Shown one piece after another: positions 3,730 to 45,943 of a stretch of 64,000 bases of DNA. Source of the stretch: Fibrobacterota bacterium (GTDB lineage Bacteria > Fibrobacterota > Chitinivibrionia > Chitinivibrionales > FEN-1185). Position 1 is the first letter of the stretch, and the number at the start of each line of letters is the position of its first letter. A model generated the notes under the pieces. The model made no database searches. It saw only the letters and a program-made list of their open reading frames with translations, and was not told the origin of the DNA. The stretch is taken from assembly GCA_003165595.1 (NCBI GenBank), contig PLWQ01000006.1, positions 69,061 through 133,060 on the forward strand, written 5' to 3'. A program made the position numbers and the translations under genes.

Positions 3730-3841
3730 GCACAGCGGAGTCGCAGCTCCCTGCATAGATAGCTTTCATTCTTCGTCGGAAGCCTTCGGATTTCCTCCTC
3801 GTGTTGCATTTACAAACTGCGATACTTGTAGCATTGGCCTT

Positions 3842-3984
3842 CTGCCTAGCGTTAGGGGGACTGGAGGGCGCGCGGGAGCGCGGTGCCGGCCGACCCGGCC
3901 GAAGGCATAGGGCGGACCGGTACCGAGGCGAATAGCCGAGCCCGAAAGGAGACCGACCCGAGCATAGCGAGGGGAACGCCCAAA
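3842..3984 (+). repeat. GC-rich structured intergenic element, full copy 1
   Basis: Head CTGCCTAGCGTTAGGGGGACTGGAGG; P1 CGCGC-GGGA-GCGCG; P2 outer stem GGTGCCGG (3882-3889) / CCGGTACC (3917-3924); boxes CCGAGGC and GCCGAGCCCGAAAGGAGACCGACC; tail GAACGCCCAAAT. Confidence 0.85.
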
Positions 3985-4054
3985 TCCTTGCCTTCAATGA
4001 GCCGGGCGCCCAGATTCTTCATGAAAATGAAAATTATCGCTATCAATTACTATT

Positions 4055-9006: not shown

Positions 9007-9150
9007 AAAACCATTCGCCTAATTGCCAATTACCTCTCATCTGAAGTCCCTTCAAGAAAAAACACCTGACAATGTACCTCCCATGAGTATTGTTGCGGCG
9101 CGTCAGTTCAGTTCAGCCGAAAAAAAAGTTGTGGCGACCAGTCCTTTGCC

Positions 9151-9294
9151 CTGCGCCAGGTTGGACCGACGGTGCTCTAAAGAGCAGTGCCGGTTGACCC
9201 CGCCGTCAGGCGTTGGGGCAATCCGGCACCGAGTCCGCATGGACGAGCCGCGAGGGAGAACCGCCGCCGTCTTCGGCGGGGCGCCAAGATTTTC
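9151..9294 (+). repeat. GC-rich structured intergenic element, full copy 4 (diverged)
   Basis: Head CTGCGCCAGGTTGGACCGACGG; P1 TGCTC-TAAA-GAGCA; P2 outer GTGCCGG (9187-9193) / CCGGCAC (9223-9229); then CGAGTCC and GAGCCGCGAGGGAGAACC; tail hairpin CCGCCG-TCTT-CGGCGG; end GGCGCCAAGATTTT. It lies head-to-head with copy 3. Confidence 0.75.
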
Positions 9295-9394
9295 ATCTTT
9301 ATTAATACGATATGTCTTAGTTGTCAACTTTTAACTCCGAACCTTCAACGTTGAACTTCTTGCTTTACAAGCTGGCGAATATTGATTTATAGAC

Positions 9395-9817
9395 ATGAAA
9401 AACCTCCTTCACCTCCTCCCCCTCTTTCTCTATCTCCCCGTGGGCCTCGTCTCTTTCTCAATGGCCGCCAAGAGCCTGCACTCCCGCTCCTTCATCCCGT
9501 TCCACCGGCAGGCAGCTCAAAGAACTCTAACCTCCCTCGAACCCCCGCTGCAATCCGTGACACTCGCGCTCATGAGAGTCTCGGGCCTGGGATTTCTCGT
9601 GGTTGGCCTGCTGCTCACCATATTCCCTGTGGTCAACTACTTCCGGCCGCATAAGTTCGCGCAATTAGCAATCCCCGCGGTTTGCCTGGTGTATTGCGCG
9701 GGGCTATCCGTTGCCAACTACTCCCTGCACAAGCAAACGAAAGCCGCCACGCCGTGGAAGGCCGCGCTCGCGGCCGCGGTGATGATTGCCGCGGGAATGG
9801 TGGCAGCGGGGTTGTGA
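9395..9817 (+). CDS. Small integral membrane protein, function unknown
   Basis: 140 aa with four hydrophobic segments (LLHLLPLFLYLPVGLVSF, GLGFLVVGLLLTIFPVV, AIPAVCLVYCAGLSV, ALAAAVMIAAGMVAAGL). No clear RBS. Confidence 0.45.
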   Translation: MKNLLHLLPLFLYLPVGLVSFSMAAKSLHSRSFIPFHRQAAQRTLTSLEPPLQSVTLALMRVSGLGFLVVGLLLTIFPVVNYFRPHKFAQLAIPAVCLVYCAGLSVANYSLHKQTKAATPWKAALAAAVMIAAGMVAAGL

Positions 9818-10105
9818 GCGATGGGAAATGGCTGTATATGGTTGGCACGTCGAAGACAAAAAACCGAAGTCCCTTTGCCTCCTTGTAAGCGTTTTGCGCA
9901 GCGGGCAGCCTAAAGGAGCACTGTATGCCATGGAAAAGGCGGACAAAATGGCCAGATTGAGAGGTTGTCTGCCAGGCGGGATATTGGGTTTCTGTGGCAG
10001 ACATGATGTAGTTGGTGTGCATGTGTCCGGCGACATTAATTATAATATAGTGCGCACCAAAGGAATACGTCCGTCCTGCCTGCAAGAATGGAAAGGCATA
10101 AAAGC

Positions 10106-10594
10106 ATGAAGGAAAAGGTATACGTTGAAACTTCCATTTTCAGCTATCTGACTTCAAAACCATCTCGGAACATTCTTGCCGCTGCGTGGCAGAGTCTGAC
10201 GGTAGAATGGTGGGAAAAGCGGAGACGTGATTTTGACCTATTTATTTCTGAGCTTGTGCGTGAAGAAGCACTCGGTGGGGATAAACAAGCAGCCGCGAAA
10301 AGGATAGCGGCGATGGAAGGAATCCCGCTTCTCAAAATTACAGACGAAGTGGTATCATTAGGTAGGACGTTCCTTGAGCCCGGGCCTTTGCCCAAAAGGG
10401 CTAGCGGGGATGCATTGCATCTTTCCCTTGCCTCTATTCACAAAATGGATTATTTACTGACCTGGAATTGCAGACATCTTGATAATGCTGAAATCAAGCC
10501 AAAAGTAAGAAAACTATTATCCCAGAAGGGTCTTTCAATTCCCGAAATATGTACACCTCAAGAGCTCATAGGAGATAAAAACAATGAAGAATGA
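10106..10594 (+). CDS. PIN-domain (VapC-like) toxin
   Basis: ORF 10088..10594; the likely start is ATG 10106 (MKEKVYVETSIFSYL). The protein is PIN-like, with an acidic residue after the first beta-strand and GDALHLSLASIHKMDYLLTWNCRHLDNA near the C-terminus. The gene is low-GC. Confidence 0.7.
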   Translation: MKEKVYVETSIFSYLTSKPSRNILAAAWQSLTVEWWEKRRRDFDLFISELVREEALGGDKQAAAKRIAAMEGIPLLKITDEVVSLGRTFLEPGPLPKRASGDALHLSLASIHKMDYLLTWNCRHLDNAEIKPKVRKLLSQKGLSIPEICTPQELIGDKNNEE

Positions 10595-10745
10595 AATCTT
10601 AGAAGAATTATGGAAAGTTAAGGACGAATTAGGCGAAAAGTATGGAAACAACATTGATGCTTTGGCGGACGCAATGAAAACGAAAGAGAAAGCCGAAAAG
10701 AACGGGGTCATTGACTTGTCGCATAATCAAAAAGCAGCAGCATAA
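10584..10745 (+). CDS. Unannotated 53-aa ORF, candidate cognate antitoxin
   Basis: Below the 60-aa cut-off of the ORF track. ATG 10584 overlaps the PIN stop by 11 nt. It translates to MKNEILEELWKVKDELGEKYGNNIDALADAMKTKEKAEKNGVIDLSHNQKAAA, which is small, charged and helical. Confidence 0.5.
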   Translation: MKNEILEELWKVKDELGEKYGNNIDALADAMKTKEKAEKNGVIDLSHNQKAAA

Positions 10746-10850
10746 TGTACCGAAATAAGAATACAAAATAACCGCCAGCTTGTCTTGGTCTGCTGGTTAG
10801 TGGTGCGCACAAGTGTGAAATTAGGGCGAAAATGACGTCGAACACACGGC

Positions 10851-10999
10851 CCACCAACACGCGCATGCCGGGCGGTCAAAGCCGCCCCAAATTGCCGCAT
10901 TTTACATTGGAAAAGGCTCGTGTCCGCGCTTCGCTGGCACGAGCCTAAATTATAGGCGGGAACTTCGGCATTGCGTGGAACGTTGTGGGGCAATTTGCC
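10851..10999 (+). repeat. Island junction repeat, composite X+Y, copy a
   Basis: X is CCACCAACACGCGCATGCC...GCCCCAAATTGCCGCATTTTACATTGGA (10851-10911). A 9-bp hairpin AGGCTCGTG/CACGAGCCT is inserted at 10914-10946. A diverged Y, TTATAGGCGGGAACTTCGGCATTGCGTGG, follows, then GGGGCAATTTGCC. Confidence 0.7.
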
Positions 11000-11166
11000 T
11001 GGCCCTTTCAAGAAAAAAATAGAAATGGGCGGTCGAGAAAGAAAATTTGTTTGCGCGGAAAAAGCGCCACATCGTGTGGCGAATAAGGAGCCCGCACCGG
11101 ATTTGAATTTCGACATGTTTGTCCGGTCAATGATAGGCCAATTAACTGCGTTCGGGGATAAATAAC

Positions 11167-12087
11167 GTGCCTAAGACAATACATGAAATCCATACCTCGC
11201 ATTGCTTGATTAATGGCGATTCGCGGGACCTTTCTTTCATAAACAATGAAACCGTGCATCTGGTCATTACGTCGCCGCCCTACTGGAACCTCAAGCGATA
11301 TAACGACAGCCCGGCGCAAATGGGCCATATTGACGATTATGAAGATTTTCTATCCGAATTGTCCAAGGTCTGGCGCGAAGTCCACCGAATCCTTGTTCCC
11401 GGTGGCAGGCTGGTTTGCGTCGTTGGCGACGTTTGCCTTTCAAGAAAAGAGCACGGCCGGCATCTGGTCATGCCTCTGCATGCCGACATTCAGGTACTGT
11501 GCAGAAAAATCGGGCTCGATAACCTTAATCCGATAATCTGGCATAAAATATCGAATGCCAAATTTGAAGCGAATACGAGCGCGAAATTCCTGGGCAAGCC
11601 TTATGAACCGAATGCGATAATAAAAAACGACATTGAATTTATCCTTATGCAACGGAAACCGGGCGGCTACAGACAGCCGACCGAGATCCAGAGAAAATTA
11701 AGCATGATCCCAAAGGACAAATTTGACGCATGGTTCAGCCAGATCTGGAATATTACCGGTGAATCGACACGAGAGCATCCGGCACCCTATCCTCTTGAAC
11801 TTGCAGACCGTTTGGTGCGGATGTTTTCATTTGTCGGAGACGTTGTTCTTGATCCATTCTGTGGTTCAGGAACAAGTATGTTGGCTGCTATGCAATCTGG
11901 CCGACATAGTATTGGAATTGAGATTGACCCGGAATACTGCAACATGATTGAGCATCGCATGGATCATAATTCTCTTTTTAAGACATCCTCGTTCCTTCGC
12001 TTGAATCCCGCTAAAAAGAAAATCAACGGCGAACTGATTGATTTTTACAACAAGGTAGAACGCGAATATTCTTCTTTGGTCGCATAA
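11167..12087 (+). CDS. DNA methyltransferase, beta-class (N4-cytosine or N6-adenine)
   Basis: 306 aa with a GTG start. Motif IV (ITSPPYWNLKRY) is N-terminal and motif I (VLDPFCGSGTS) is C-terminal, which is the circular order of beta-class amino-methyltransferases. No recognisable restriction endonuclease lies next to it. Confidence 0.85.
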   Translation: MPKTIHEIHTSHCLINGDSRDLSFINNETVHLVITSPPYWNLKRYNDSPAQMGHIDDYEDFLSELSKVWREVHRILVPGGRLVCVVGDVCLSRKEHGRHLVMPLHADIQVLCRKIGLDNLNPIIWHKISNAKFEANTSAKFLGKPYEPNAIIKNDIEFILMQRKPGGYRQPTEIQRKLSMIPKDKFDAWFSQIWNITGESTREHPAPYPLELADRLVRMFSFVGDVVLDPFCGSGTSMLAAMQSGRHSIGIEIDPEYCNMIEHRMDHNSLFKTSSFLRLNPAKKKINGELIDFYNKVEREYSSLVA

Positions 12088-12351
12088 AACGCTCTACCTG
12101 TGCCCGTCCTTGGCTCAAGTATAAACGGCGCAAAGTGCAAAAATCAAAATCCAGTGAACGCAGGCAAACCGCTCCCCTCTCAGGTCAGCAGGAGATCTAC
12201 GATTGTGGAACCAATCTTTTGCCCGGCGTTAGTTGGACCGGCGGGTTTGCCGCTTGACATGACGGTTTCGCCACCCGTCATGGTTCGACTGGCTCACCAC
12301 GGGTGTCAGCCAGTCATGTCAAAGACTCCGCCGCGGCTTCCGTCGGGTAGC

Positions 12352-12388
12352 GAGATTGTAGGCGGGCACGGCGGGCGGGTGCGTGGGA
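12352..12388 (+). repeat. Island junction motif Y, copy c
   Basis: Reads GAGATTGTAGGCGGGCACGGCGGGCGGGTGCGTGGGA. It is preceded at 12221-12245 by a head-like fragment of the GC-rich element (TGCCCGGCGTTAGTTGGACCGG) and at 12252-12322 by a long imperfect palindrome. Confidence 0.7.
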
Positions 12389-12539
12389 AGTTGCAAGCAA
12401 TTCTTGCGTTCAATGAGATTGATAAGTTTGCGCCTAAGAAAATTCAGGTAAGACCTGGTTAAATCTATTTTGAATATAGAAGAATGCAGCGCCCCAAAAC
12501 ACGCCGCGTCGTACGGCAATTTAAGCAAAGAGATTAGCG

Positions 12540-13382
12540 ATGAAGAAAAAAGCAATGGTAGATAGAAGCCTCCCCTCCGTACCCACTCCCTTCGTCCTTT
12601 ATACTGCCGCTGATGGCAAGGTTAAGGTTGAGGTATTCGTTCAAGATGAAACGGTATGGCTGACTCAGAAGCATATGTCTGAACTGTTTTCAGTCGATGT
12701 TCGTACGATAAGCGAGCACCTCCGCAATATTTTTGACAGCAACGAGTTGGAAGAATCGGCAACCGTCCGGAAAATCCGGACAGTTCAAAAAGAAGGTACC
12801 CGCGATGTATCACGCGAACTTGCTTTCTATAACCTTGATGCCATTATTGCCATCGGGTACCGCGTAAATTCGTATCAGGCGACGCAATTCCGCATATGGG
12901 CGACAAAAACACTAAAAGAGTTCATTATCAAAGGCTTTGTTCTGGACGACGACCGGCTCAAAAATGGAAAGACCTTTTTTGGCAAGGATTATTTCGAGGA
13001 ACTACTTGAACGTATCAGGGAAATTCGCGCGAGTGAGCGCCGGTTTTACCAGAAGATAACTGATATTTATGCGCTTGCGGCTGATTACGACAAAAATTCG
13101 CCTATTACCAAGGAGTTTTTCGCTACAGTTCAGAATAAATTGCATTGGGCAATTACCGGGAAAACCGCTGCAGAAATAATTTACGATTCAGCTGATGCAA
13201 AAAGGATTTATATGGGGCTTACCAGTTGGAAGCAGGCGCCTGACGGCAAGATAATGAAAACAGATGTTGTGGTTGCAAAGAATTACTTGAATAAAGCGCA
13301 TATCGACGAACTAAACAGAATCGTCTCTGCATATCTTGACCTCGCTGAGAACCAAGCGAAACGCCAGAATAAACCTGTTTAA
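12540..13382 (+). CDS. RhuM family protein (virulence/Fic-DOC-associated family)
   Basis: 280 aa. It reads VWLTQKHMSELFSVDVRTISEHLRNIF...AIIAIGYRVNSYQATQFRIWATKTLKEFIIKGFVLDDDRLKNG...IREIRASERRFYQKITDIYA, matching the conserved RhuM core. Confidence 0.88.
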   Translation: MKKKAMVDRSLPSVPTPFVLYTAADGKVKVEVFVQDETVWLTQKHMSELFSVDVRTISEHLRNIFDSNELEESATVRKIRTVQKEGTRDVSRELAFYNLDAIIAIGYRVNSYQATQFRIWATKTLKEFIIKGFVLDDDRLKNGKTFFGKDYFEELLERIREIRASERRFYQKITDIYALAADYDKNSPITKEFFATVQNKLHWAITGKTAAEIIYDSADAKRIYMGLTSWKQAPDGKIMKTDVVVAKNYLNKAHIDELNRIVSAYLDLAENQAKRQNKPV

Positions 13383-13412
13383 GAATGTATGGTAGCGTTC
13401 CAATTTACGTGT

Positions 13413-13509
13413 CCACAACACGCGCATGCCAGACGCAGAGCTGCCCCAAATTGCCGCATTTTACATTGGACAGATTTTAGGCGGGCACGGTAGTCGGGTG
13501 TGTGGAGCG
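13413..13509 (+). repeat. Island junction repeat, composite X+Y, copy b
   Basis: Reads CCACAACACGCGCATGCC-N12-GCCCCAAATTGCCGCATTTTACATTGGA, with the last 28 nt identical to copy a. It is directly followed by CAGATTTTAGGCGGGCACGGTAGTCGGGTGTGTGGAGCG. Confidence 0.75.
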
Positions 13510-13644
13510 TTTTTACTGATAATTTGCCCGGCATAGGAAGAAACCGCTTCGGGCGCAATACCGGTCGATAATCAGCAGAGGGTTAGAGTCTCAAGGAAAT
13601 CAAAGCTGACCACAATTTTTAAATTGCATGAGAAAGGGACGTCT

Positions 13645-15279
13645 ATGAATGTCTCCACGAGTTTAATAAGGATCTTTTTGCCGGCTAGTTTCCTGGGCTT
13701 GCTTTTCTTCGTCTCATGTGCTCAATCGCAAAGCAATCCGAATGTAACCACAGCGAGTACCGTCAGCCCGAATTCGTCCGTGTTGCAGAGAGTCGATAAT
13801 CTCGAATATCGTTTGAATCTAGAATCAACTAATTCCGAAAAGCGGTACAAGGACTTTTCTGACGTAGTCACCCTTGTTGGGTCTCTGTTTGGGGGATTTA
13901 TTGCTCTCTTCACTATCCTGACCTTTGTTATTAATTTCTTGCGTGACCAACAGCAGCGTAAAGACTATTTGACGGAACGCAAATTCTATGAGGAGCGTGC
14001 AATCAACACCGAAAAGCGCGATACCAAATCCGCAGAGCAGCAGATCAATCTTGGAAATAACGTATTGACTCACTCTAACGATATTCTCGCACAACAGATT
14101 GATAATATTAACAAACTGGGATCAGTAATTGCTTTGGTTCGAGATACATTCCAGCTTCAATTCAACCGCGAAAAGGCACAAAGCAATTTGGTGGAAATGC
14201 TTAATGCAACCAACAAAGTTGTCGAACAACTCCAGAATGATTTTCAACGAAAATTTGACGACGCGGCCCAGTTAATGTTAAACAATTTCAAGAACTACAA
14301 AGCCATGGACTGGCCATCTATTTCGGACGAAGCCTTAAACCTCGCAGCAAGGGCTAGAACCAAATTCGAAGGAGTCCCGGCACATATTCTTGAAAAAGAA
14401 AAAATCAACAGGCCCTATGAACTAGCCTGGATTTTTCAATTGATGGGCACCAGCGCTTTTTATGCCAACGATATCGCTTCTGCGCTTTCCCAACTCAAAG
14501 ATGCCGACGACATCTTCAATTCCTGTCCATTCCGACCCGATTATGGCCTTAAACATGCATACACGAAATATTTTCTTGGATTAATTGAAAAGAACTGGCA
14601 ACAAGAGACCGGGGTTACGCGCAGTAACCTAAAAGCGGCCTTTGACTACCTGCAAAAGGCTTGCGATCTGGTTAAGGAAGATAATAAACAATTCCTCATC
14701 CCAATCACATTTGCAGAGGTTCAATCATATCGTGACGATCAACGCGACGATGCGAACAGATTAATTGATGACATTCTCAATCGTTTTGACAGAATTGGTT
14801 ATGAATCCTTAGACAATAACCAACGCTCGCTGTTCATGCGAACGAACTTGCTCAAAGGCAATATTTTGTTCAAAGCGAAGGATCCGACGTGCTGCAACTG
14901 GTATAGAAACGTATTTGAAAGGAACAAGACAAACGCCTATGCACACCTATCATATGCACATTCGCTCCCGCCAAATAAGGCCCAGGAAGCCGGAGAACAT
15001 TGGAAGCTTGGGCTAAATTACTTGATAAGTTCCGGAGCTGTCCGAAAAAGAGAAACAACAACGAGAGTAATGGCGCTCACATGGGCAATTGTAGCAGCGA
15101 CAAAGTGTAATGACAAAAACAGTTTGGAAGGATATGGAAATGAACTGGAATCAGCGTCAAAGAATTTACAAAGCATTGGCCAGCGCATACCCCTTTTCTT
15201 CTCTCCTATTTCAAAGGACTTGCTAACTATCGAAGACTTGAAAAATCAATTAGATCAATATCTTGGACAAAAAACCTGA
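13645..15279 (+). CDS. Lipoprotein-signal, single-TM, all-helical protein of unknown function (545 aa)
   Basis: ORF 13624..15279; the likely start is ATG 13645. It has a lipobox-like LLFFVSC and a second hydrophobic helix, VVTLVGSLFGGFIALFTILTFVINFL. After that come a Q/N/K-rich coiled region and a TPR-like helical region. The gene is low-GC. No family was recognised. Confidence 0.65.
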   Translation: MNVSTSLIRIFLPASFLGLLFFVSCAQSQSNPNVTTASTVSPNSSVLQRVDNLEYRLNLESTNSEKRYKDFSDVVTLVGSLFGGFIALFTILTFVINFLRDQQQRKDYLTERKFYEERAINTEKRDTKSAEQQINLGNNVLTHSNDILAQQIDNINKLGSVIALVRDTFQLQFNREKAQSNLVEMLNATNKVVEQLQNDFQRKFDDAAQLMLNNFKNYKAMDWPSISDEALNLAARARTKFEGVPAHILEKEKINRPYELAWIFQLMGTSAFYANDIASALSQLKDADDIFNSCPFRPDYGLKHAYTKYFLGLIEKNWQQETGVTRSNLKAAFDYLQKACDLVKEDNKQFLIPITFAEVQSYRDDQRDDANRLIDDILNRFDRIGYESLDNNQRSLFMRTNLLKGNILFKAKDPTCCNWYRNVFERNKTNAYAHLSYAHSLPPNKAQEAGEHWKLGLNYLISSGAVRKRETTTRVMALTWAIVAATKCNDKNSLEGYGNELESASKNLQSIGQRIPLFFSPISKDLLTIEDLKNQLDQYLGQKT

Positions 15280-15362
15280 AGCACAGGTTCCCCGCACATC
15301 CGTCCGAACGTCTTCGATATATCACCCGGTGTGCACGATCATCCGTGACTGTGCGCCGTGGC

Positions 15363-15399
15363 GAGATCATAGGCGGGCACGGCGGGCTGTGCGCACACG
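15363..15399 (+). repeat. Island junction motif Y, copy d
   Basis: Reads GAGATCATAGGCGGGCACGGCGGGCTGTGCGCACACG, ~45 nt upstream of the 15441 start. Confidence 0.7.
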
Positions 15400-15440
15400 T
15401 TGCGGTTTTTTGTCAACCATCCTGATACCCGTGAAAAACC

Positions 15441-16223
15441 TTGTCCATAACCATTCCCGTGCAAAACATCACCCGTAAATCCCTCATCTACAAAAGCGGC
15501 CTTGGCTTCTATTGCGTGAACCATGCGCAGGGCTGCAGCCACGGGTGCAGGTATCCGTGCTATGCGTTTTCCATGGCTGGCCGTTACGGCCGGTCGGCAG
15601 GGTATGATGACTGGTGCAGGCCAAAGCTTGTTGCAAATGCCCCGGCGCTGCTGGACAAGGAGCTTCCGAAGCTGAAGAAGAAGCTTGGTGTTTCTGCGGA
15701 TGCGGATGAATTCCGCATACATTTGTGCCTGACCACGGACCCGTTCATGGTCGGCTGGCCGGAAATTCGGGCCATGAGCCTGCGCATTGTCGAGAAAATC
15801 AATGCCGCCGGCCTTACCTGCGATATTTTGACAAAGGGCATTCTTCCCCGCGAACTGGCAGGCCCCGCATTCAATAAGAAGAATCGTTACGGGATAAGCA
15901 TCGTGTCACTCGACGAGGATTTCCGGAAGCGCTGGGAGCCGGGAGCTGCCCCGTACGCGGACCGCATAGGCGCTTTGCGGTACCTGCACGACAGGGGCTT
16001 TCCCACGTATGCGCATATCGAGCCGTATCCGACACCAAATATTTTCAAGCAGGATATAGCAGCGCTGGTGAATGCCGTAGCCTTTGTTGACTCCCTGTAC
16101 TTCGGCGGCTGGAACTACAGTACCGCGGCAGAGAAATACCCGGACCGTACGGCGTTTTACGAGGAGCAATCCAGGATAGTAAAAGCGTTATGCCGCAAAC
16201 ATAACATTGAGTGCGAAATGTAG
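15441..16223 (+). CDS. Radical-SAM-like protein (SplB/COG1533-like), atypical Cys motif
   Basis: 260 aa with a TTG start. It reads VNHAQGCSHGCRYPCYAF, a CX3CX3C spacing instead of CX3CX2C. The rest resembles a TIM-barrel-like radical SAM core (IHLCLTTDPF, GISIVSLDE). The assignment is tentative. Confidence 0.55.
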   Translation: MSITIPVQNITRKSLIYKSGLGFYCVNHAQGCSHGCRYPCYAFSMAGRYGRSAGYDDWCRPKLVANAPALLDKELPKLKKKLGVSADADEFRIHLCLTTDPFMVGWPEIRAMSLRIVEKINAAGLTCDILTKGILPRELAGPAFNKKNRYGISIVSLDEDFRKRWEPGAAPYADRIGALRYLHDRGFPTYAHIEPYPTPNIFKQDIAALVNAVAFVDSLYFGGWNYSTAAEKYPDRTAFYEEQSRIVKALCRKHNIECEM

Positions 16224-16393
16224 GTATCAGGAAGGATTACAGTCCTATGCCCCCCAAAAGAACGTGGCGGCTTGTGCCGTGGGTGTATTGAGGGATTTGT
16301 CTCGTCTTGACAGGATCACGGGCAGGTCGTACAATCAGGACTGCGGCGGACCCTGCTTCGGAATCTCTGCCGGCATCCCCACGGAGGATTTTC

Positions 16394-17371
16394 ATGCGCC
16401 CGATTACCCTGTCCTTTCTTTTCTGTCTGCTTCCCGCGGCAATTGCCGCAAACACAATCCATGTTCCTCACGATTACGCATTGCTGCAATCTGCGGTTGA
16501 CGCATCTGCAGCCCGCGATACGATCGTCTGCGATAGTGTCAAGGACCCGGATTCGATAAGGATCATGGGCAAAACCAACCTGGTGGTTCAGGGCGTGTTA
16601 CCGGTCGGCAGCACAAGAATCACCACAGTCATGTTCATCAAAAACAGCTCCTGTGCCTTGGAGAACCTCTCTTTTGCCGGCGCAAAGGGATATGACGGCA
16701 GCAACAATAACAGCTGTAAAAGCGCTCCCGGGCTCGACGGAAGACCCGGAGCAGACGCGATTGTCCTGGACAGTTCAACCGTTGCCGTTACGGGGTGCAC
16801 TGCAAGGGGCGGCGACGGCGGATCCTACGGGATAAGCTACCAGAGCGGCATGCTGTGCCTCTGCGGGTCAAAAGGAATACCGGGAACCGCGCTTAAAGCG
16901 CATCATTCGACGGTCTACCTGGAAAACGATTCCCTGTTGTCAGGAACATGCGCCGGCACCTCGATCGCCGGCTGCTTCACCAATACCTGCACGGTGCAGG
17001 GTTTCGGCTGCACGGGCCTGGAAGGGACGGAGATTGACACGAGCCGGTCGATCATAAGTTCCATCAGCCTGGACTCGTCATCGACCGCCGGGCCGGCCGC
17101 AACCCCGGTCAATGGCCGGTATACCCCCCACTTTGCACCGTTGCGGCATCGCGTGCTGGTGTCCGCATCCGGCTTTCTTGCAATTCCGGATGATATCAGG
17201 GCGCCGTATTCCGTTTCTGTTTTCAATGCAAGGGGAAGTCTGGTGTGGTACCGGAACCGTGTTGCTTCACGGCAATGCAATTTTGCAAACCAGCTCGGCC
17301 GGGGGATCTACATGGTTTGTGTGCAATCGGCTCATGTGAAAATCTCGGGCAGGTGGGTGAATTCCCGATAG
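16394..17371 (+). CDS. Secreted Cys/Gly-rich protein with a T9SS-type C-terminal domain
   Basis: ORF 16307..17371. I place the start at ATG 16394, after GGAGGA. It has a signal peptide, MRPITLSFLFCLLPAAIAA. The C-terminal ~70 aa (YSVSVFNARGSLVWYRN...GIYMVCVQSAHVKISGRWV) resemble a Por secretion tail. Confidence 0.6.
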   Translation: MRPITLSFLFCLLPAAIAANTIHVPHDYALLQSAVDASAARDTIVCDSVKDPDSIRIMGKTNLVVQGVLPVGSTRITTVMFIKNSSCALENLSFAGAKGYDGSNNNSCKSAPGLDGRPGADAIVLDSSTVAVTGCTARGGDGGSYGISYQSGMLCLCGSKGIPGTALKAHHSTVYLENDSLLSGTCAGTSIAGCFTNTCTVQGFGCTGLEGTEIDTSRSIISSISLDSSSTAGPAATPVNGRYTPHFAPLRHRVLVSASGFLAIPDDIRAPYSVSVFNARGSLVWYRNRVASRQCNFANQLGRGIYMVCVQSAHVKISGRWVNSR

Positions 17372-17546
17372 AAGTCTTTGAATTACCGATTGAACGCACG
17401 GGCAAAACTATCAAAAGGAAACGGCGGAAAATGAAAGAAGCAAATCCTGTAAATATCAAAGAGATGAACTTCGTTCAATTGTTTGAACAGATTTCTCCGG
17501 AAGAGATAAGCGACAAAGTACGCTTTGCAATTGTGGCAATAAGCTT

Positions 17547-17690
17547 CTGCCCAACGTTAGGTGGACCGAAGGGTGCGCGAGAGCGCAGGGCTGCCTGACC
17601 GCGGCCAGAGGCCGTGGCGGCAGGCAGCACCGAGGCCTTGGCCGAGCCCGCAGGGAGACCGGCCCCGCGGAGCGGGGCAACGCCCAATTT
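17547..17690 (+). repeat. GC-rich structured intergenic element, full copy 5 (reference copy)
   Basis: Head CTGCCCAACGTTAGGTGGACCGAAGG; P1 TGCGC-GAGA-GCGCA; P2 outer GCTGCCTG (17590-17597) / CAGGCAGC (17621-17628), with inner CCGCGGCC-AGAG-GGCCGTGG; then CACCGAGGCC and GCCGAGCCCGCAGGGAGACCGGCC; tail hairpin CCCCGC-GGA-GCGGGG; end CAACGCCCAATTT. Confidence 0.88.
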
Positions 17691-17833
17691 CTTATCTTGT
17701 TATTGCAGCGGGGCACCCGGATCTATTTTTTGATCTCCCTGCACCCGCTCAGCAAACCAAAGCTGCATTTAATTCTATTTTCTCTGTGTCCTCTGTGTCT
17801 CTGTGGTGAATTTCCGGTATTAGAGGAGCCCGC

Positions 17834-18265
17834 ATGAATTCAAAAAAATATCCCCTCCCCTCTTTTCTTTCGGGAACATGCACCGTGGAAACCTACGAAA
17901 AATGGTTGGAAAAACGCGGTGATGAAATTCGCAAGCGAGACCTCGCTCGGGGCAAGCCGTTCGCCTTGACGTGTCAGGTGGCCTTTTACAAACAGAAAAT
18001 CCATGAAGCCGTGGCCAACAGCGGCGGCATCGACCCCTATACCGGCGAAACCCTGCGTTGGGACCTTATCGGCACATGGTACGAGGAACGCGCAAAGACC
18101 TTCGACAGGGCTTTCTTTCTTTTGCCCACGGTCGACCATACCGACCCGGAGGCCGCGGTGCTGGATTTCGAAATATGCTCGTGGCTGGTCAACACTTGCA
18201 AGAACCTCCTGAATCCAAACGAGTTCGTTGCGTTCTGCGGGAAGGTGGTGGAGTACCGGAAATAG
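17834..18265 (+). CDS. Hypothetical protein, possible degenerate HNH-like fold
   Basis: 143 aa with RBS GAGGAG. The segment LLPTVDHTDPEAAVLDFEICSWLVNTCKNLL loosely recalls the DH...N...CxxxN..K of HNH nucleases. No firm family assignment. Confidence 0.55.
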   Translation: MNSKKYPLPSFLSGTCTVETYEKWLEKRGDEIRKRDLARGKPFALTCQVAFYKQKIHEAVANSGGIDPYTGETLRWDLIGTWYEERAKTFDRAFFLLPTVDHTDPEAAVLDFEICSWLVNTCKNLLNPNEFVAFCGKVVEYRK

Positions 18266-18656
18266 CAGCGCCACAAACCTGCCCGATTCTTCTCGGTAAA
18301 CACAATCCAAACCAATCGCGTTCTCGGAGCATCCTTGATCGTTCACAGATTGCAAAGACTAGAATCTACCAAGCATTGGACGCGAGGTTGCCTTCAGCCT
18401 GTGCTTTGATGCCCCTCTCATTGTCTTCGCTTCGCTCGCGGTGCAACGCAGGCAATCAAGCCACCACATTCTTTGATCAAATGTCATGCGCAATAGGTTG
18501 GAACGCGCAGCGCGGGCCGCCACTTCTCTGGACGCGAGGGAAGAACTCTGCATTTTACCAGGCGACTAATTCAGTATTTTATTCCCCGATTCAATTATTT
18601 TATAACACTATGTGAACTGCATCTCATGATTACCAACACGGCAAGGAGCCATATCT

Positions 18657-20159
18657 ATGTCTTTCAAAGAAATCAATTTTGGCTATATCTCTGCTGAAGC
18701 CGAACGCGCAGAATCGCCCAACTTGATTATAGATGGATATTTTGATCCTGCCAACTGGATTGAAGATATCCTTAACAAAAGCATGTTTCTCATTTTGGGT
18801 TACAAAGGGACAGGAAAATCCGCCTTGATCAATCGAATCGATTTTGACAACAAATACGACAAGTTTTATACTTTTATTAGCCTGGATAATTTTCCATTTA
18901 CAGATTTCTTTTCGCAGGTATACAAAAACGACGACCTAAGCAAGGACGCCATTCTTCCCGATAGCTGGGCCTGGCTCATTTTGCTTCAGATAGTATGGTC
19001 ACTGCAAAAAGATCCCAACAAAGTCAACAATAGCAGATTTGACAAATTGGTTCACGGGCTTAAAGAAAACGGCTTTTCATCGCCAAATAAATTCAGTGAT
19101 CTCCTGATCCAAACGAAAGAAAACAAGTTTATTGTGCATGGACCCAGTATTGAATTAAATCCCGCTCTCGGCGTCGAATCTGATTTGACTCTATTCAAAT
19201 TTGAATCCAATTTAGCAAGGGACAAAACCGAAATCTCTCTGGACAGGCTCATTCTATTTACCAAACAAGTGATTGCCGAGCAAACGTCCATCAATCAACA
19301 TATCCTTTTTATTGATGGACTTGATCGAGCCATTTATGGCGGCGAAGATACGTATTCGTCTATCGCCACCTTAATCACTGAAAGTCTAAAACTAAACCAG
19401 TTCTTTCGTGAATCCAATGTTCCCATCAAAATTGTGATCGCTTGCCGCACTGATCTTTTTGGTAAGCTGTCCATCATTAATCGCAACTCAATTCTAAATA
19501 CGTACTCAATACCGCTTATATGGCACAACGACTTTAGGGATTATTCGAATTGCAATCTAAACAAACTTGTAAATTTCAGAGCCAAATTATCTTTGTCCAA
19601 GGAGGTTGATGTTTTTCGTGATTATTTTCCGGACGAATTTACATTGGACAATAATTCAACCGGCAAGACTTTTACACACAAGACAATCGTCTACATTTAT
19701 TGGCATACGCGCAACACTCCTCGCGACTTGCTTATGGCGTTAAAGGAAATACAAAAGGCTCACTCAATCTTCAATTCCATGGTCACATTGGATGAGATAA
19801 TCAAGGGACTTTCAAATTACTCAAGAAGCTATTTTTTGCCCGAAATAAAGGACGAACTTGGTGGTTATCTCACGACAAAGGAAGTTGACCAAGCGTTACA
19901 CATGCTACAATCGTTGTATGTGTGGTATGGTGACTATAAAGTCCTTATCAGAAGAGCAAAAGAGGCTGGTCTGGAAGAAGATCGTGCCCGTGATATTCTT
20001 TCCATTTTGTTTGAATGCAGCGCTATCGGCAATCAATTTAAGGCAGGTGATGGCGATAAAAGGCTTACCTACAAGTACTATATGCCAGAGGCAAGCTTGG
20101 ACATATCGCAGCAAATTGTCGTGCACCGAGGTTTATGGAAAGCTTTTAATTACGTATAG
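18657..20159 (+). CDS. Standalone P-loop NTPase (STAND/ORC-like), function unknown
   Basis: 500 aa. It has Walker A (LILGYKGTGKSAL), Walker B (HILFIDGLDRA) and a sensor-like TRNTPRDLLMAL. This is the most AT-rich gene in the window. RBS AAGGAG. Confidence 0.8.
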   Translation: MSFKEINFGYISAEAERAESPNLIIDGYFDPANWIEDILNKSMFLILGYKGTGKSALINRIDFDNKYDKFYTFISLDNFPFTDFFSQVYKNDDLSKDAILPDSWAWLILLQIVWSLQKDPNKVNNSRFDKLVHGLKENGFSSPNKFSDLLIQTKENKFIVHGPSIELNPALGVESDLTLFKFESNLARDKTEISLDRLILFTKQVIAEQTSINQHILFIDGLDRAIYGGEDTYSSIATLITESLKLNQFFRESNVPIKIVIACRTDLFGKLSIINRNSILNTYSIPLIWHNDFRDYSNCNLNKLVNFRAKLSLSKEVDVFRDYFPDEFTLDNNSTGKTFTHKTIVYIYWHTRNTPRDLLMALKEIQKAHSIFNSMVTLDEIIKGLSNYSRSYFLPEIKDELGGYLTTKEVDQALHMLQSLYVWYGDYKVLIRRAKEAGLEEDRARDILSILFECSAIGNQFKAGDGDKRLTYKYYMPEASLDISQQIVVHRGLWKAFNYV

Positions 20160-27139: not shown

Positions 27140-27604
27140 TTTTGTCGATTCTCCTTCTGCAAATGTGCAAGGCAAGTTTATTCATGAAGCGGGCGCCTCC
27201 GCCCGCCATCAGTGGCGCAGCCGCGCGGGAATTATGAGCAGGAATTTAAACATTTTCTTGACTCAAGCGCCCAAACGTGTGCAAACCCGTTGTCCGCTCT
27301 GTCATTCTGCTGTAAGTCAAATTGCTCAGCCGGGATGTCAACAAATCAATATACAATCGCGTGTTGCCGCTGTCAACCTTGCAACCTTGGTTTCAGGTTT
27401 AGCTTGTTTCCAGAAACTAAAGACCCGAGCGCCTCCTTTTCCCCGTGTCTCCGAGGCGAGCCTTCACCTTCATTACCCGATCTGCTTGCAGCATTAAATT
27501 GGACGAAAAGCCGACAAGACCATATACTCTCATTAGGTGGCGCGATCGCCGCCGTTGGAACCAGTGTCCGAGCAAAAAACCCCTTCTCAAGAAAAAGGAT
27601 ATTT

Positions 27605-29662
27605 ATGAAAGCATCTTTTGCTGTTTTGCGGAAACTTTCGTCGCGCTCACCCGGATGGGAAATAAAGTTCTTCGGAATTTTTTCCGGCGTTGCATTGCTT
27701 CTCCTGTTTGTCCCGGGCGCTTGGGCCGACTGCACCGTGGTGCCTTATGCCAATGACGCCAATACCGTGCTTTTGGACCATTTCGACAGTTCCACGAGCG
27801 CAAGCTTTAACGGCAGTCTTTCTGCGGCGGATTGCAACTTGACGTCCCCCACGCAACCATCCCATGCCTATGGCTCGGGGCAGAGCGGCCTTGGGAATGC
27901 CATTACCTTGACTCCCCCTGCGGCGGCCGGTTCGATGTCCTATCTGCGGTATCCCACGCAGGATATTTTATGCCTGGCCAACGGGACTATTGAGTTCTGG
28001 GTTTATCCTACTGCCTATGGTTTCGAACTTGCGGACCAAGGGCAATATTACAACGCATGCTCGGGTTGGACGTTTCGCCTCGGGATTAATGCAAACGGAT
28101 ATCTGACCTCCGCAGACTGGGACTTTTCCGGCTGTTGGAGCATGACGTCCGGTGAGGTCGTGCCCTTGAACGCCTGGAGCCACATAGCGGTAAGTTGGGG
28201 CAGCACCGGCGCCAAGTTGTATCTCAACGGCGTACAGGTGGGCAGTCATGCCTCCACCGATTATCCGGCCGGGGGTTTCGGGGGATACCTGATGATGCCC
28301 TTCGGCTCCCCCACAAGTGTAAAATGCAGCATCGACGAACTGAGAATCTCAAATGTGCAGCGAACCAGTTTCAACTTGTGCGGGCCGCCGTCCGCACCAT
28401 CACTTGCGTTACCGGTTGACTCGGCTGGAAACATCCCGGTATCAACCACCTTGAGCTGGAACGCCGCTGCCGGCGCCGATTCATACACGCTCCAAGTATC
28501 GGATTCATCTTCATTCTCCTCATTCGCAATTAACCGGCCCGGCATAACCGCAATTTCCAGCGACGTATCCGGCTTGGCGAACGATACGAAATACTATTGG
28601 CGGGTCAACGCAAAAAACAGCGGCGGCACGAGCGCATGGTCAAACGTCTGGTCTTTCACCACTTCCGCGCCGGCCAACTGCATATCTGCGGAGTATACCA
28701 GTGACTCAAATACCGTGCTCCTGGACCATTTCGACAGTTCCACGAGCGCGAGCTTCAATGCCTATGTTGCCGCCCCCGGCTGCGGGAGTTTTGCCGCAGC
28801 GACGCCGGCCTATGCCTATATAACCGGTCAGAGCGGCTTTGGAAAGGCAATTGCGATGAGTCCGCCTGCGGGCCAGCCGTCCGGTTCTGCCTCCTTTCTA
28901 AAGTATTCAACGGAAGACATCTTGTGTCAAGCCAACGGTACCATTGAATTCTGGGTCTACCCCACCGCCCGCGGTCACAACTCTCTGGATCTGGCGGGCC
29001 AGGGACAATATTACAACGCGTGCCAGGGTTGGACGTTCCGCATGGGGATCGACACAAGCGGCCATCTGACGTCAGACGACTGGGACTTTACCGGCAGTTG
29101 GAGCATGACGTCAAGTAAGGTCGTCCCTTTGAACGCGTGGAGCCGCGTGGCAGCCACCTGGGGAAGCGCCGGCGCCAAGTTGTATCTCAACGGGGAGCAG
29201 GTGGGCAGTCATTCGTCAACCGATCATCCGGCCGGCGGTTTCGGGGGGTATCTGATGATGTGCTGCGGGACAAACGCGGGTTCCGGTCACGTCATCGACG
29301 AACTGAGGATCTCAAACGTACAAAGGACTGTTTTTGGCGCGTGTGCGCCGCCGGTCGGAGTATTTCCGGTGCATAATGTACCGGGAACTTCCGGCTTCAC
29401 CGCTGTTTGGCCCAATCCGATGAGGAATACGCTCTCGATCAATTTCAATCTTTGCCGGCCGGCAAAGGTTGCGGTTGAAATCTACTCATGCAACGGCACC
29501 CTGGTAAAGCAGTTGACCAACGAGACAAGGGAATCGGGCGTTCATACGCTGGTGTGGAATGGTTGCGACAAAACCGGCAGGCAGGCGGGTGCGGGGGTAT
29601 ATTTCATGCGGCTCACGCTCGGGGACCAGACCTATGGGAAGCAGATTGCGATAATAAAGTAA
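27605..29662 (+). CDS. Secreted protein with two LamG-like modules, an FN3-like linker and a T9SS C-terminal domain
   Basis: ORF 27212..29662; the start is at ATG 27605 (MKASFAVLRKL... with a TM/signal segment). The modules NTVLLDHFDSSTSASFN...ANGTIEFWVYPTA...LNAWS...GAKLYLNG.QVGSH...IDELRISNVQRT are duplicated in tandem. The C-terminal tail reads GVHTLVWNGCDKTGRQAGAGVYFMRLTL. Confidence 0.8.
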   Translation: MKASFAVLRKLSSRSPGWEIKFFGIFSGVALLLLFVPGAWADCTVVPYANDANTVLLDHFDSSTSASFNGSLSAADCNLTSPTQPSHAYGSGQSGLGNAITLTPPAAAGSMSYLRYPTQDILCLANGTIEFWVYPTAYGFELADQGQYYNACSGWTFRLGINANGYLTSADWDFSGCWSMTSGEVVPLNAWSHIAVSWGSTGAKLYLNGVQVGSHASTDYPAGGFGGYLMMPFGSPTSVKCSIDELRISNVQRTSFNLCGPPSAPSLALPVDSAGNIPVSTTLSWNAAAGADSYTLQVSDSSSFSSFAINRPGITAISSDVSGLANDTKYYWRVNAKNSGGTSAWSNVWSFTTSAPANCISAEYTSDSNTVLLDHFDSSTSASFNAYVAAPGCGSFAAATPAYAYITGQSGFGKAIAMSPPAGQPSGSASFLKYSTEDILCQANGTIEFWVYPTARGHNSLDLAGQGQYYNACQGWTFRMGIDTSGHLTSDDWDFTGSWSMTSSKVVPLNAWSRVAATWGSAGAKLYLNGEQVGSHSSTDHPAGGFGGYLMMCCGTNAGSGHVIDELRISNVQRTVFGACAPPVGVFPVHNVPGTSGFTAVWPNPMRNTLSINFNLCRPAKVAVEIYSCNGTLVKQLTNETRESGVHTLVWNGCDKTGRQAGAGVYFMRLTLGDQTYGKQIAIIK

Positions 29663-45294: not shown

Positions 45295-45599
45295 CAAAGA
45301 ACGCCGCGCCTACAGCGCCGCCTGATCGCTCGGCCGTCGGGCCGCTCGTGAACTCACCCCGCAGAACAGTTGCAGGATCTGAACGAAGATGCCGGTCTCG
45401 GACAGCACGAGCGGGCCAAACCTCCGGCCGAGTGGGCGGCGCTGATGGCGGAAGACAAAGACCAATACAATTCGGATTGATTCACCAGACGTTGTTGACG
45501 CATTGCACTCTTACCTCCTCGCCACTGATGGAGAAAGAAAAAGCAAAACAATTCAAGTTGATTCGCGCAAGCCCTTATTTACAAGTGGGCAAAGTACTT

Positions 45600-45819
45600 C
45601 TGCCAGCGTTAGGTGGACTGAAAGGCGCGCAAGAGCGCGGTACCGCCTGACCGCGGCCGCAGGCCCTAGCGGCAGGCGGTACCGAGGCGAGCCGGAGCAC
45701 ATGGATGTGCGGAGACCATCACGCATAGGCGTGACCGAAACGGCGCGAGCAGGATGCGAAGCGTGAATAGCCGAGCCTGTAAGGAGACCGACCCAAGCGC
45801 AGCGAGGGTAACGCCCATT
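45600..45819 (+). repeat. GC-rich structured intergenic element, long variant (copy 8)
   Basis: Head CTGCCAGCGTTAGGTGGACTGAAAGG; P1 CGCGC-AAGA-GCGCG; P2 outer GGTACCGCCTG (45639-45649) / CAGGCGGTACC (45673-45683). A ~76-nt insertion at 45689-45765 holds a second GAGCC...GGAGACC box and two extra hairpins. Then ATAGCCGAGCCTGTAAGGAGACCGACC and TAACGCCCATT. An extra tail fragment, GCGGCGGGGCGCCCAGATC, lies at 45823-45843. Confidence 0.8.
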
Positions 45820-45943
45820 CAAGGCGGCGGGGCGCCCAGATCCTGACCCACTACAAAGCAGCAAATACCCTCCATATCACCCTGGATTATTTTCATACAA
45901 TAGAACATCCGTCCGAAAGGTCATTATCTAACAAGGAGAACAA

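Follow-up and report, generated by a model that had tools for sequence, protein, structure and literature searches.

What kind of element is formed by five unrelated, same-strand gene units that are separated by a recurring motif between about 10 and 16 kb of a 64,000-nt stretch of Fibrobacterota DNA (GenBank assembly GCA_003165595.1, contig PLWQ01000006.1, positions 69,061 to 133,060; this whole stretch is called the window in the following)? A first-pass annotation, made from the letters alone, had proposed serial site-specific insertion in which each event regenerates the junction. Our follow-up supports this proposal and makes it likely that the locus is a chromosomal, now frozen and decaying integron-like cassette array that lost its integrase, while the array type is probably an undescribed integron variant. 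This cassette reading is based on boxes that are complementary across each cassette, on breakpoints at GTT in sister platforms, on compensatory changes in the stems of the sites, and on a remnant of a recombinase gene with an attI-like region at the head of the array.

Junction sites and complementary boxes in the window

Exactly three copies of TAGGCGGGCACGG are present in the window (12359, 13478, and 15370). A 34-nt motif family was located at 12353–12386, 13472–13505, and 15364–15397, with a diverged copy at 10940–10968 (repeat finder) and a weak copy, CAGGCGGGATATTGGGTTTCTGTGG, within a 9-bp hairpin (9966–10003). In addition, a 28-nt module is exact at 10884–10911 and 13443–13470 (chance expectation 0). 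Thus, the motif copies and the module common to two junctions were recovered as first described, and the view that the motif is tied to the boundaries of gene units instead of being scattered was borne out, as all motif copies in the window are confined to 10.8–15.4 kb and lie on the plus strand. At every junction, a GTT follows a few bases past the motif. The claim that complementary AAC/GTT pairs are missing had to be given up, as such boxes are present at the junctions J1 (CACCAAC...GTTGTGG), J3 (CCACAAC...GTTTTTA), and J4 (CAAAAAAC...GTTTTTTG). We propose that each junction represents an attC-type imperfect palindrome of about 100–150 nt, in which the motif (AGATnnTAGGCGGGCACGG...GTGCGTGG) would be the conserved right arm. 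This arm would end with nnAC followed by the right box GTTxxxx, and the left arm would open with the left box xxxxAAC.

In integrons, exchange takes place at G|TT, and the TTxxxx with which a cassette starts complements the left box of its own attC, xxxxAA(C). We tabulated the boxes of the window and of four related metagenome arrays (L140, L088, L160, and L165); here, as in all loci described, attC sites were called by our own criteria and not by IntegronFinder. Of 14 pairs of neighbouring junctions, 12 had a right box that was exactly reverse-complementary to the next junction's left box (54 of 56 variable positions overall). The two boxes of the same junction matched at 26 of 56 positions, and 12 exact pairs were reached by none of 100,000 random pairings. 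Within the window, J0 (GTTGGTG) is the exact complement of J1 (CACCAAC), and J1 (GTTGTGG) that of J3 (CCACAAC) with J2 skipped, followed by J3 to J4 (GTTTTTA and AAAAAAC, 6/7) and J4 to J5 (GTTTTTT and AAAGAAC, 6/7, plus 19 nt of extended complementarity). All pairs were exact in L140, L088, and L160 (3/3 each) and in L165 (1/1), as were two attI-to-attC pairs obtained later (L171 and L173). We read this box rule as a mark left by the exchange of cassettes at G|TT.

In regard to the individual sites, J1 (10852–10988, plus strand, 137 nt) contains the 28-nt module and an internal hairpin. It revealed an nhmmer match to the site family with an E value of 4.8e-25 and 90.5% identity to attC b of L140, and it folds end to end, its CACCAAC.. 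pairing with ..GTTGTGG (z of −3.7 for the top and −3.4 for the bottom strand). J3 (13413–13515, plus strand, 103 nt) matched the family profile with an E value of 1.9e-13, and its L stem shows 7 of 7 pairs including G-T, but its whole-site fold was no better than those of shuffled sequences. J4 (15268–15412, plus strand) is divergent; its two outer boxes pair mutually, it folds end to end, and its motif half matches the family hidden Markov model (HMM) with an E value of 3.1e-5. A GTTGCGG in family register (15399–15405) has no matching left arm. As right box of J4 it is disfavoured by the fold and by the 19-nt extended complementarity, both of which point to GTTTTTTG, although the assignment is ambiguous. 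At the end of the array, J5 (16223–16263, plus strand) appears as the degenerate left half of the last attC (GGTATCAGGAAGGATTACA...CAAAAGAAC), whose sequence complements the beginning of the radical SAM cassette; no right arm was found. Altogether, three full and two partial sites lie within 5.5 kb, without a tyrosine recombinase open reading frame (ORF) in the window.

J2 (12249–12396, plus strand) is an attC truncated at its 5' side, whose left box and left stem arm are gone and whose right box GTTGCAA (12390–12396) is retained. It matches only positions 27–148 of the family HMM, and compared with attC a of L140, homology is absent left of GCCGCTTGAC. The place of the left arm is occupied by a fragment (12202–12248, plus strand) comprising the first c. 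47 nt of a GC-rich element, which aligns with the copies of this element at 17533, 45585, and 9133. This replacement of the left arm of J2 accounts for the step from J1 to J3 in the box rule, and the methylase and RhuM genes form one fused cassette. Fusion of cassettes that lose part of their attC is known from class 1 integrons (PMC4670013).

At the head of the array, a remnant of a recombinase 3' end of about 80 nt was identified (9835–9913, plus strand). It reads ..YMVGTSKTKNRSPFASL*, set against the family C-terminus IYTHVSNKEISKIRSPLA(S/N)L..KKGTT*, and continues as a frameshifted tail to the ancestral TAA (9911–9913). Next to it lies an attI-like region (9914–10017, plus strand) with a GTATGCCATGG block, the 9-bp hairpin mentioned above, and the crossover box TAG|TTGGTG (10009–10017), i.e., J0, whose TAGTT context is of attI type and whose GTTGGTG fits the left box of J1 exactly. 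The region upstream of J0 was aligned with the regions following the recombinase stop codon in related loci (..CCTAAAGGAGCACTGTATGCCATGG.. vs ..CCTAAGGAACAAAGGATGCCACT..), and 9914–10017 aligns with those of L164, L170, L171, L173, L163, and L165. An HMM was built on six other loci from the last 150 nt of the recombinase gene and the 95 nt that follow it; when both strands of the whole window were searched, it gave a single match, namely at 9857–9961 (E value of 7.1e-5). The remnant immediately precedes J0 on the strand of the cassettes, and the 140-aa ORF before it ends at 9817. As far as can be judged from these alignments, the window holds the stump of a recombinase gene and an attI region, followed by cassettes, and the rest of the gene is gone. 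The earlier statement that the window harbors no integrase thus holds for an intact gene, as no intact tyrosine recombinase was found in the window by tblastn, but not for this remnant and its attI region (c. 9835–10017).

The array is present in 10 contigs from several metagenomes, which are 99.9–100% identical. Among the GTDB representatives, glnA identity did not exceed 73% and no sites of the family were found. The closest glnA ortholog in a long contig (L176, 88%) has a rearranged neighbourhood with neither the array nor an empty site. Most likely, the array of the window is inactive in cis and slowly decaying, as the state of its sites suggests.

Some further features of these sites were observed. 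The palindrome GGCAAWTTGCC occurs in the window at 10886–10898, 10990–11000, and 13445–13457 and also in attC sites and attI flanks of L140, L164, and L165. It is located inside several attC sites as well as just past the right box at cassette starts (e.g., GTTGTGGGGCAATTTGCC), and it resembles a site to which a dimeric protein would bind. A block GTCATGTCnnAAAnCTCCGT is conserved in the otherwise variable middles of attC sites across sequence classes (window 12318–12340; L088 11945–11970 and 13050–13075; L165 c. 16160–16185; L140). Moreover, a 5' leader of about 100 nt is homologous across unrelated cassettes, namely those for RhuM in the window (12390–12500), Fic in L140 (10923–11030, minus strand), and an HATPase protein in L171 (11352–11410). 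It begins at the right box and reads GTTGyAAGCAATTyTTGCGTTsAATGA..TTTGCGCC.AAGAAA. Both untranslated flanks of the RhuM cassette, 5' and 3', are homologous to those of the Fic cassette of L140, and the 25 nt before the left box of the attC are common to both.

Related sites, intact platforms, and their recombinase

Scanning public metagenome contigs with AGATNNTAGGCGGGCACGG resulted in 73 loci, mostly chance matches inside genes. Copies of the whole element were found eight times in seven loci from peat metagenomes (L088, L099, L108, L132, L139, L140 with two copies, and L145). They are alike from xxxxAAC ACACGCAGCCGCGCCATGCCCGC... to ...GGCGGGCACGGCGGGCGGTGCGTGGAAC GTTxxxx, the similarity ending exactly outside AAC and GTT, and the two arms of each element are imperfect inverted repeats. 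For the L088 copy, an end-to-end fold was obtained on both strands (z of −4.4 and −5.3). In the window, J1, J3, and J4 are palindromic sites with such boxes, and related loci contributed 12 more; the lengths are 62–174 nt. The sites follow a common plan, in which a left box xxxxAAC and one unpaired A precede the first half of the L stem, a variable middle separates it from the second half, and a 4-nt nnAC leads to the right box GTTxxxx; the single unpaired A in the left arm together with the 4-nt nnAC spacer in the right arm was seen in 12 of 13 sites. The first six pairs of the L stem are kept by compensatory change, pair 1 being C-G in six sites and G-C in seven, and pairs 2 and 6 showing three or four pair types each.

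Counted over 15 sites, the left (R''-L'') arm has 26 unpaired stem bases and the right (R'-L') arm 80, and in each of the 15 the number is higher on the right. In canonical attC sites, the extrahelical bases are found on the R''-L'' arm, which is the left, ORF-proximal one, and determine the choice of the bottom strand (PMC2727003). Since they lie mostly on the R'-L' arm here, the asymmetry is reversed. An inversion of the whole array relative to a canonical integron, which could account for this reversal, was considered and rejected, as attI and the recombinase lie at the ORF-upstream end and the last attC moves with the left-hand cassette.

For the detection of sites, nhmmer profiles and a hand-written structural scanner were used. 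MAFFT alignments of full sites misregistered the left ends, so that no covariance model was built. An energy-based arm scanner missed J1 and J3. An edit-distance scanner recovered the known sites and gave about nine false matches per shuffled 64 kb at a cost of ≤2; because of this rate, it was used only jointly with the box rule. In L160 (c. 11080–12840), an insertion sequence (IS) with a DDE_Tnp_1/DUF772 transposase is placed exactly at the AAC of the attC2 left box, and L161 (12889–12975) lacks it and is otherwise identical, which suggests that attC boxes serve as insertion targets.

Related loci with an intact recombinase gene provided eight platforms (L170/168/169, L171/172, L173/174, L163, L165–167, L164, L088, and L160/161). 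The region after their recombinase stop codon reads GGATGCCACTnAGTGGCGTC.., TACCATTTTTGGTATAAAGGACGGTAyCG.., about 10 nt, and nTAG|TTGxxx. The TAG|TT lies 70–130 nt past the stop codon and is followed by cassettes on the same strand where the contig continues. In L088, L160, L165, L171, and L173, this TAG|TT is followed by a box that exactly complements the left box of the next attC that could be recognised. At the eight attI-like sites listed, six read AGTT and two TGTT (L165 and L164), and all 13 tabulated attC sites read CGTT. The contigs of L168, L169, L172, and L173/L174 end 70–1000 nt past the recombinase gene, as expected for assembly breaks at strain-variable arrays. In composition, the chromosomal flanks of L171, L165, and L173 closely resemble the window (r of 0.85–0.90), so that intact platforms exist in close relatives.

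Comparison of L088 with L160/L161 revealed a turnover of cassettes. Their recombinases are 99% identical at the amino acid level, and their DNA is 94.7% identical up to CTAGTTG. The right flank is common again from the last GTTGTTCATTGAG onward (88.5%). Between these flanks, the cassettes are wholly different, with breakpoints at GTT at both ends. L088 harbors a Dam methylase with a 376-aa protein, a SAM methyltransferase, and a RelE-like/helix-turn-helix (HTH) pair, and L160/L161 harbors small ORFs, a DUF6036 protein, and a sortilin-like protein of the type IX secretion system (T9SS); two IS insertions are additionally found in L160. The common right flank opens precisely with the GTT of the last site, which differs between the two arrays, indicating that a site travels with the ORF to its left and that the crossover is at the right box. 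This platform adjoins genes for a Tn3-type transposase, a resolvase, and TraG, and other platforms are chromosomal.

The recombinase of L088 (8281–9483), which lies on the cassette strand, was identified by tblastn with IntI1 as query. This query gave one other recombinase match only, in L039, a locus unrelated to these arrays, and none of the fetched loci with this attC family or recombinase platform contained an IntI-like sequence. Against the NCBIfam model XerA_Arch, the L088 recombinase reached 214.6 bits (cutoff 220), and against TIGR02249 (integrase_gron) 196 bits in two stretches (cutoff 265). In the alignment with IntI1, it lacks 30 and 11 residues in two gaps at the position of the additional domain of IntI. 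Seven recombinases from independent loci were aligned, and like XerD, none of them has the IntI insertion of about 40 aa. All seven possess an N-terminal extension of 120–170 aa, giving a total of about 400–440 aa. The domains PF13495 and PF00589 were assigned to the recombinases of the sister platforms, and the best PDB matches were the XerC-like 4a8e (144 bits) and then IntI4 (2a3v, 134 bits in two stretches). There are thousands of homologs, which carry the JGI name XerD, some of them originating from metagenome-assembled genomes (MAGs) of Chitinivibrionales, Fibrobacteres, and Chitinispirillaceae. Judged from these comparisons and from its place, the recombinase at the array head is a Xer-like enzyme that appears to be dedicated to the array.

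Thus, a working model can be put forward. A tyrosine recombinase encoded at the array head and co-oriented with the cassettes would cut the right box at G|TT, presumably with the site folded as single-stranded DNA, and an ORF with its attC would be released as a circle. The circle would be inserted again at attI (TAG|TT), 70–130 nt after the recombinase stop codon. In the window, the recombinase gene would have been deleted down to its last c. 25 codons with survival of the attI-like region. Four units would remain, namely the PIN-like pair, the fused methylase and RhuM cassette, the 544-aa protein, and the radical SAM protein, and the last site, J5, would be half decayed.

Known systems and competing explanations

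With integrons and with clusters of attC sites that have no integron integrase (CALINs), the locus shares the same-strand array of unrelated, mostly single-gene units, each followed by an imperfect palindrome with xxxxAAC/GTTxxxx, the exchange at G|TT, an attI beside the recombinase gene, and variable cassettes between conserved flanks. Further common features are a cargo rich in toxin-antitoxin and defence genes, fused cassettes, and decay to an array without integrase. With at least two attC sites by our own criteria and no intI nearby, i.e., in the window, the locus falls under the definition of a CALIN. Several features differ. While IntI has the additional domain (I2 helix region), the recombinase described here lacks it; it carries the N-terminal extension of 120–170 aa, its gene is co-oriented with the cassettes, and its attI lies past its 3' end. 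The sites have an R-L spacer of 1 x 4 nt, and their additional unpaired bases are found on the R'-L' arm, whereas canonical sites have them on R''-L''. The first-pass annotation was therefore right in calling the sites non-canonical, but for the wrong reason, since box pairs are present and it is the missing IntI-specific domain and the reversed stem asymmetry that set them apart. The additional domain of IntI contacts the flipped-out bases of the folded attC. IntegronFinder defines IntI by PF00589 plus this domain (intI_Cterm) (PMC4889954), and its gain is regarded as the step from a Xer-like enzyme to an integron integrase (PMC7790495, PMC4792948). Cury et al. (2016) described 50 PF00589 proteins without the IntI region beside attC sites, of which four take a phylogenetic position between IntI and Xer; these proteins were not followed up there (PMC4889954). 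Our array-head recombinases are the same kind of observation.

In a literature search with incomplete coverage, no paper was found on integrons of Fibrobacterota or on integron-like systems with Xer-like integrases. Integrons with a co-oriented integrase, such as that of Treponema denticola, carry the integrase on the cassette strand, with the array downstream of the 3' end of the gene, and their integrases retain the additional domain. They thus share the co-orientation, while the recombinases described here lack that domain. A further system to be compared is Xer/dif, in which dif and pdif are double-stranded 28-bp sites of the form 11-6-11 and the Xer modules include integrative mobile elements exploiting Xer (IMEX). 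Recombinase length and domain content, as well as gene modules bounded by sites of the recombinase, are common to both. In our loci, however, the sites are 62–174-nt palindromes with conserved bulges and AAC/GTT boxes, present several times per locus with integron-type cassette ends, and the recombinase is located at the array head with its own attI, on plasmid or transposon as well as chromosomal backgrounds, instead of being a housekeeping pair acting at the terminus. The arrays were therefore not assigned to Xer/dif, dif-like 11-6-11 sites not having been searched systematically.

One competing explanation is an ordinary CALIN, with canonical attC sites served by a canonical IntI elsewhere in the genome and the Xer-like recombinase as a bystander. 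The boxes loosely fit RYYYAAC/GTTRRRY (e.g., GCCCAAC/GTTGGGC and ATTTAAC/GTTAAAT), CALINs are common and mostly found without nearby intI pseudogenes (PMC4889954), and our search covered 64 kb of a 491-kb metagenome contig, so that a canonical IntI may be present elsewhere in these genomes. A bystander, however, would not be expected to lie in eight platforms with differing upstream contexts exactly at the array head, together with an attI-like sequence whose first box fits the next attC, and the array head of the window itself carries the remnant of a Xer-like gene and not of an IntI gene. The stem asymmetry (80 versus 26 unpaired bases in 15 sites) is opposite to that of canonical attC (cf. 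PMC2727003), and the fetched loci with this attC family or platform were free of IntI-like sequences. Thus, we regard the ordinary CALIN as unlikely, though as the most serious of the competitors.

Elements of 100–150 nt with imperfect terminal inverted repeats could also be miniature inverted-repeat transposable elements (MITEs) or dispersed repeats of the repetitive extragenic palindromic (REP) type that landed between genes, and a separate, GC-rich dispersed repeat is indeed present in the same window. Such an origin is hardly conceivable for copies that lie, within the window, inside 5.5 kb, on one strand, and with one copy per gene boundary. Target-site duplications are lacking, the flanking boxes are complementary across each ORF, the structure is kept while sequence classes differ, and a recombinase gene and an attI-like site form the boundary of the arrays. 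A shared promoter, operator, terminator, or structured untranslated RNA of co-regulated genes, in part already named as an alternative in the first-pass annotation, fits somewhat better, as hairpins between same-strand genes could terminate or stabilise transcripts, the recurring GGCAAWTTGCC could bind a dimeric protein, and cassette 5' leaders are conserved. Yet a scan for sigma-70-like promoters, which does not cover Bacteroidota-type promoters, returned 14 sites versus 9.0 ± 2.9 expected, and neither these nor intrinsic terminators were enriched or coincided with a motif core; one weak promoter-like match (9/12) overlaps the attI-like region of J0. No Rfam family matched anywhere in the window at gathering scores. 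Moreover, regulation leaves the box rule, the GTT breakpoints, and the swap of cassettes between identical flanks without explanation. A purely regulatory nature is therefore very improbable, although a regulatory role could coexist with recombination.

Several observations speak against the integron-like array. The recombinase remnant in the window is short (17 bits), J2, J4, and J5 are irregular, the pairing of J1 with J3 requires J2 to be skipped, and one L140 pair requires a slip of 3 nt at GTT. One homolog of the recombinase (P0004, L162) lies among housekeeping genes with no attC seen, and another (P0009, L163) heads a large defence-type operon, again with no attC seen, although an attI-like region is present. 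Finally, neither recombination nor circular cassettes nor strain variation were seen for the window array in its 10 contigs. 

Gene cargo, chromosomal setting, and significance

As proposed before and confirmed here, the genes of the array are all on the plus strand and are unrelated to one another. Cassette 1 (10012–10982, plus strand; complementary ends TTGGTG...CACCAA) contains a gene for a PIN-like protein (10088–10594; Pfam PIN, E value of 3.8e-4, which misses the Pfam cutoff), overlapped by a 53-aa ORF (10584–10745); both are on the plus strand. The fused cassette (10983–13509) consists of a gene for an N6/N4 DNA methyltransferase (11167–12087, plus strand; N6_N4_Mtase, E value of 7.7e-41) and a RhuM-family gene (12540–13382, plus strand; Virulence_RhuM, E value of 8.4e-98). 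It is followed by a cassette (13510–15405) with the gene for the 544-aa protein (13645–15279, plus strand), predicted in the first-pass annotation as a lipoprotein. The last cassette (15406 to c. 16263) encodes a radical SAM protein (15441–16223, plus strand; Radical_SAM, E value of 4.7e-9), the gene being enclosed by a 19-nt inverted repeat (15411–15429/16223–16241). The cargo of the window and of the related arrays, with PIN-like, HEPN/MNT, RelE-type plus HTH, and Fic proteins and methylases, is typical for cassettes.

For the 544-aa protein, no Pfam family was found, and only five homologs were detected among 5.8 billion proteins. The only named one (41% identity) is encoded in a Polyangia MAG (L175, JBAVNC010000168.1, 5199–6824), not in an array but in a defence-like island, with an MmeI-type methylase/SNF2 helicase pair on one side and a DEAD/MZB helicase on the other. 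This neighbourhood hints at a role of the protein in phage defence.

The lower GC content described for the array was confirmed, with 0.43–0.48 across 10–15 kb versus 0.55–0.60 in the flanks, and the tetranucleotide correlation of 10000–16200 with the rest of the window was 0.51 compared to 0.95 within the rest. The surroundings are ordinary chromosomal, with amt, glnB, glnD, and glnA upstream and T9SS-sorted proteins elsewhere, and the named relatives of the glnA gene belong to Chitinivibrionales (c. 72% identity). Along with the named recombinase homologs and the T9SS sorting domains, these relatives make a Fibrobacterota-like host likely. The next gene after J5 encodes a secreted protein of 325 aa (16394–17371) and has its own, near-perfect sigma-70-type promoter (TTGACA-17-TACAAT, 16307–16335), which marks the return to ordinary chromosomal genes. 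Beyond the recognised array, more low-GC genes lie on the plus strand at 17834–20159 (GC 0.39–0.48 at 18–20 kb), namely a 143-aa ORF and a 500-aa AAA-ATPase-like protein, with a weak attC-like trace at 18402–18545 (GTGCAACGCAGGCAATC..; nhmmer E value of 0.17), so that the array may once have reached to about 20.2 kb. Apart from that, a tandem duplication of about 963 nt (74–81% identity, 27746–29353) was noticed inside the gene for an 816-aa Laminin_G_3/FlgD_ig/T9SS-tail protein (27212–29662).

The GC-rich intergenic element has a size of about 170–190 nt and is present in four plus-strand copies (3822–3985, 9133–9330, 17533–17720, and 45585–45850), the copy at 45.6 kb carrying an insertion of about 100 nt. 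Three copies support a multi-stem consensus fold with eight compensatory pairs, and a comparison with Rfam gave no match at E≤1. It may be a new structured RNA or DNA element or a mobile repeat. The common origin with the junction motif that had been suspected is not supported; the likeness appears to be due to the c. 47-nt fragment abutting J2 and not to common ancestry.

Whether these arrays make up a class of their own that has so far not been described, i.e., integrons with an I2-less Xer-like integrase, an N-terminal extension, co-orientation with the cassettes, attI after the stop codon, and mirror-image attC sites, occurring in Fibrobacterota-like (Chitinivibrionales-related) bacteria, plasmids, and transposons, we consider an evenly balanced question. 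Such a class would mean either that the integron principle was invented independently or that a form from near the transition from Xer to IntI has survived, and would thus bear on the origin of integrons. If it is real, current tools would score such systems as orphan CALINs and undercount integrons outside Proteobacteria, and the systems would offer a tractable contrast for the study of attC recognition and strand choice without the I2 helix. For this genome, the locus would represent a fossil array of horizontally acquired accessory genes, among them a toxin-like gene, a methylase, RhuM, and a radical SAM protein.

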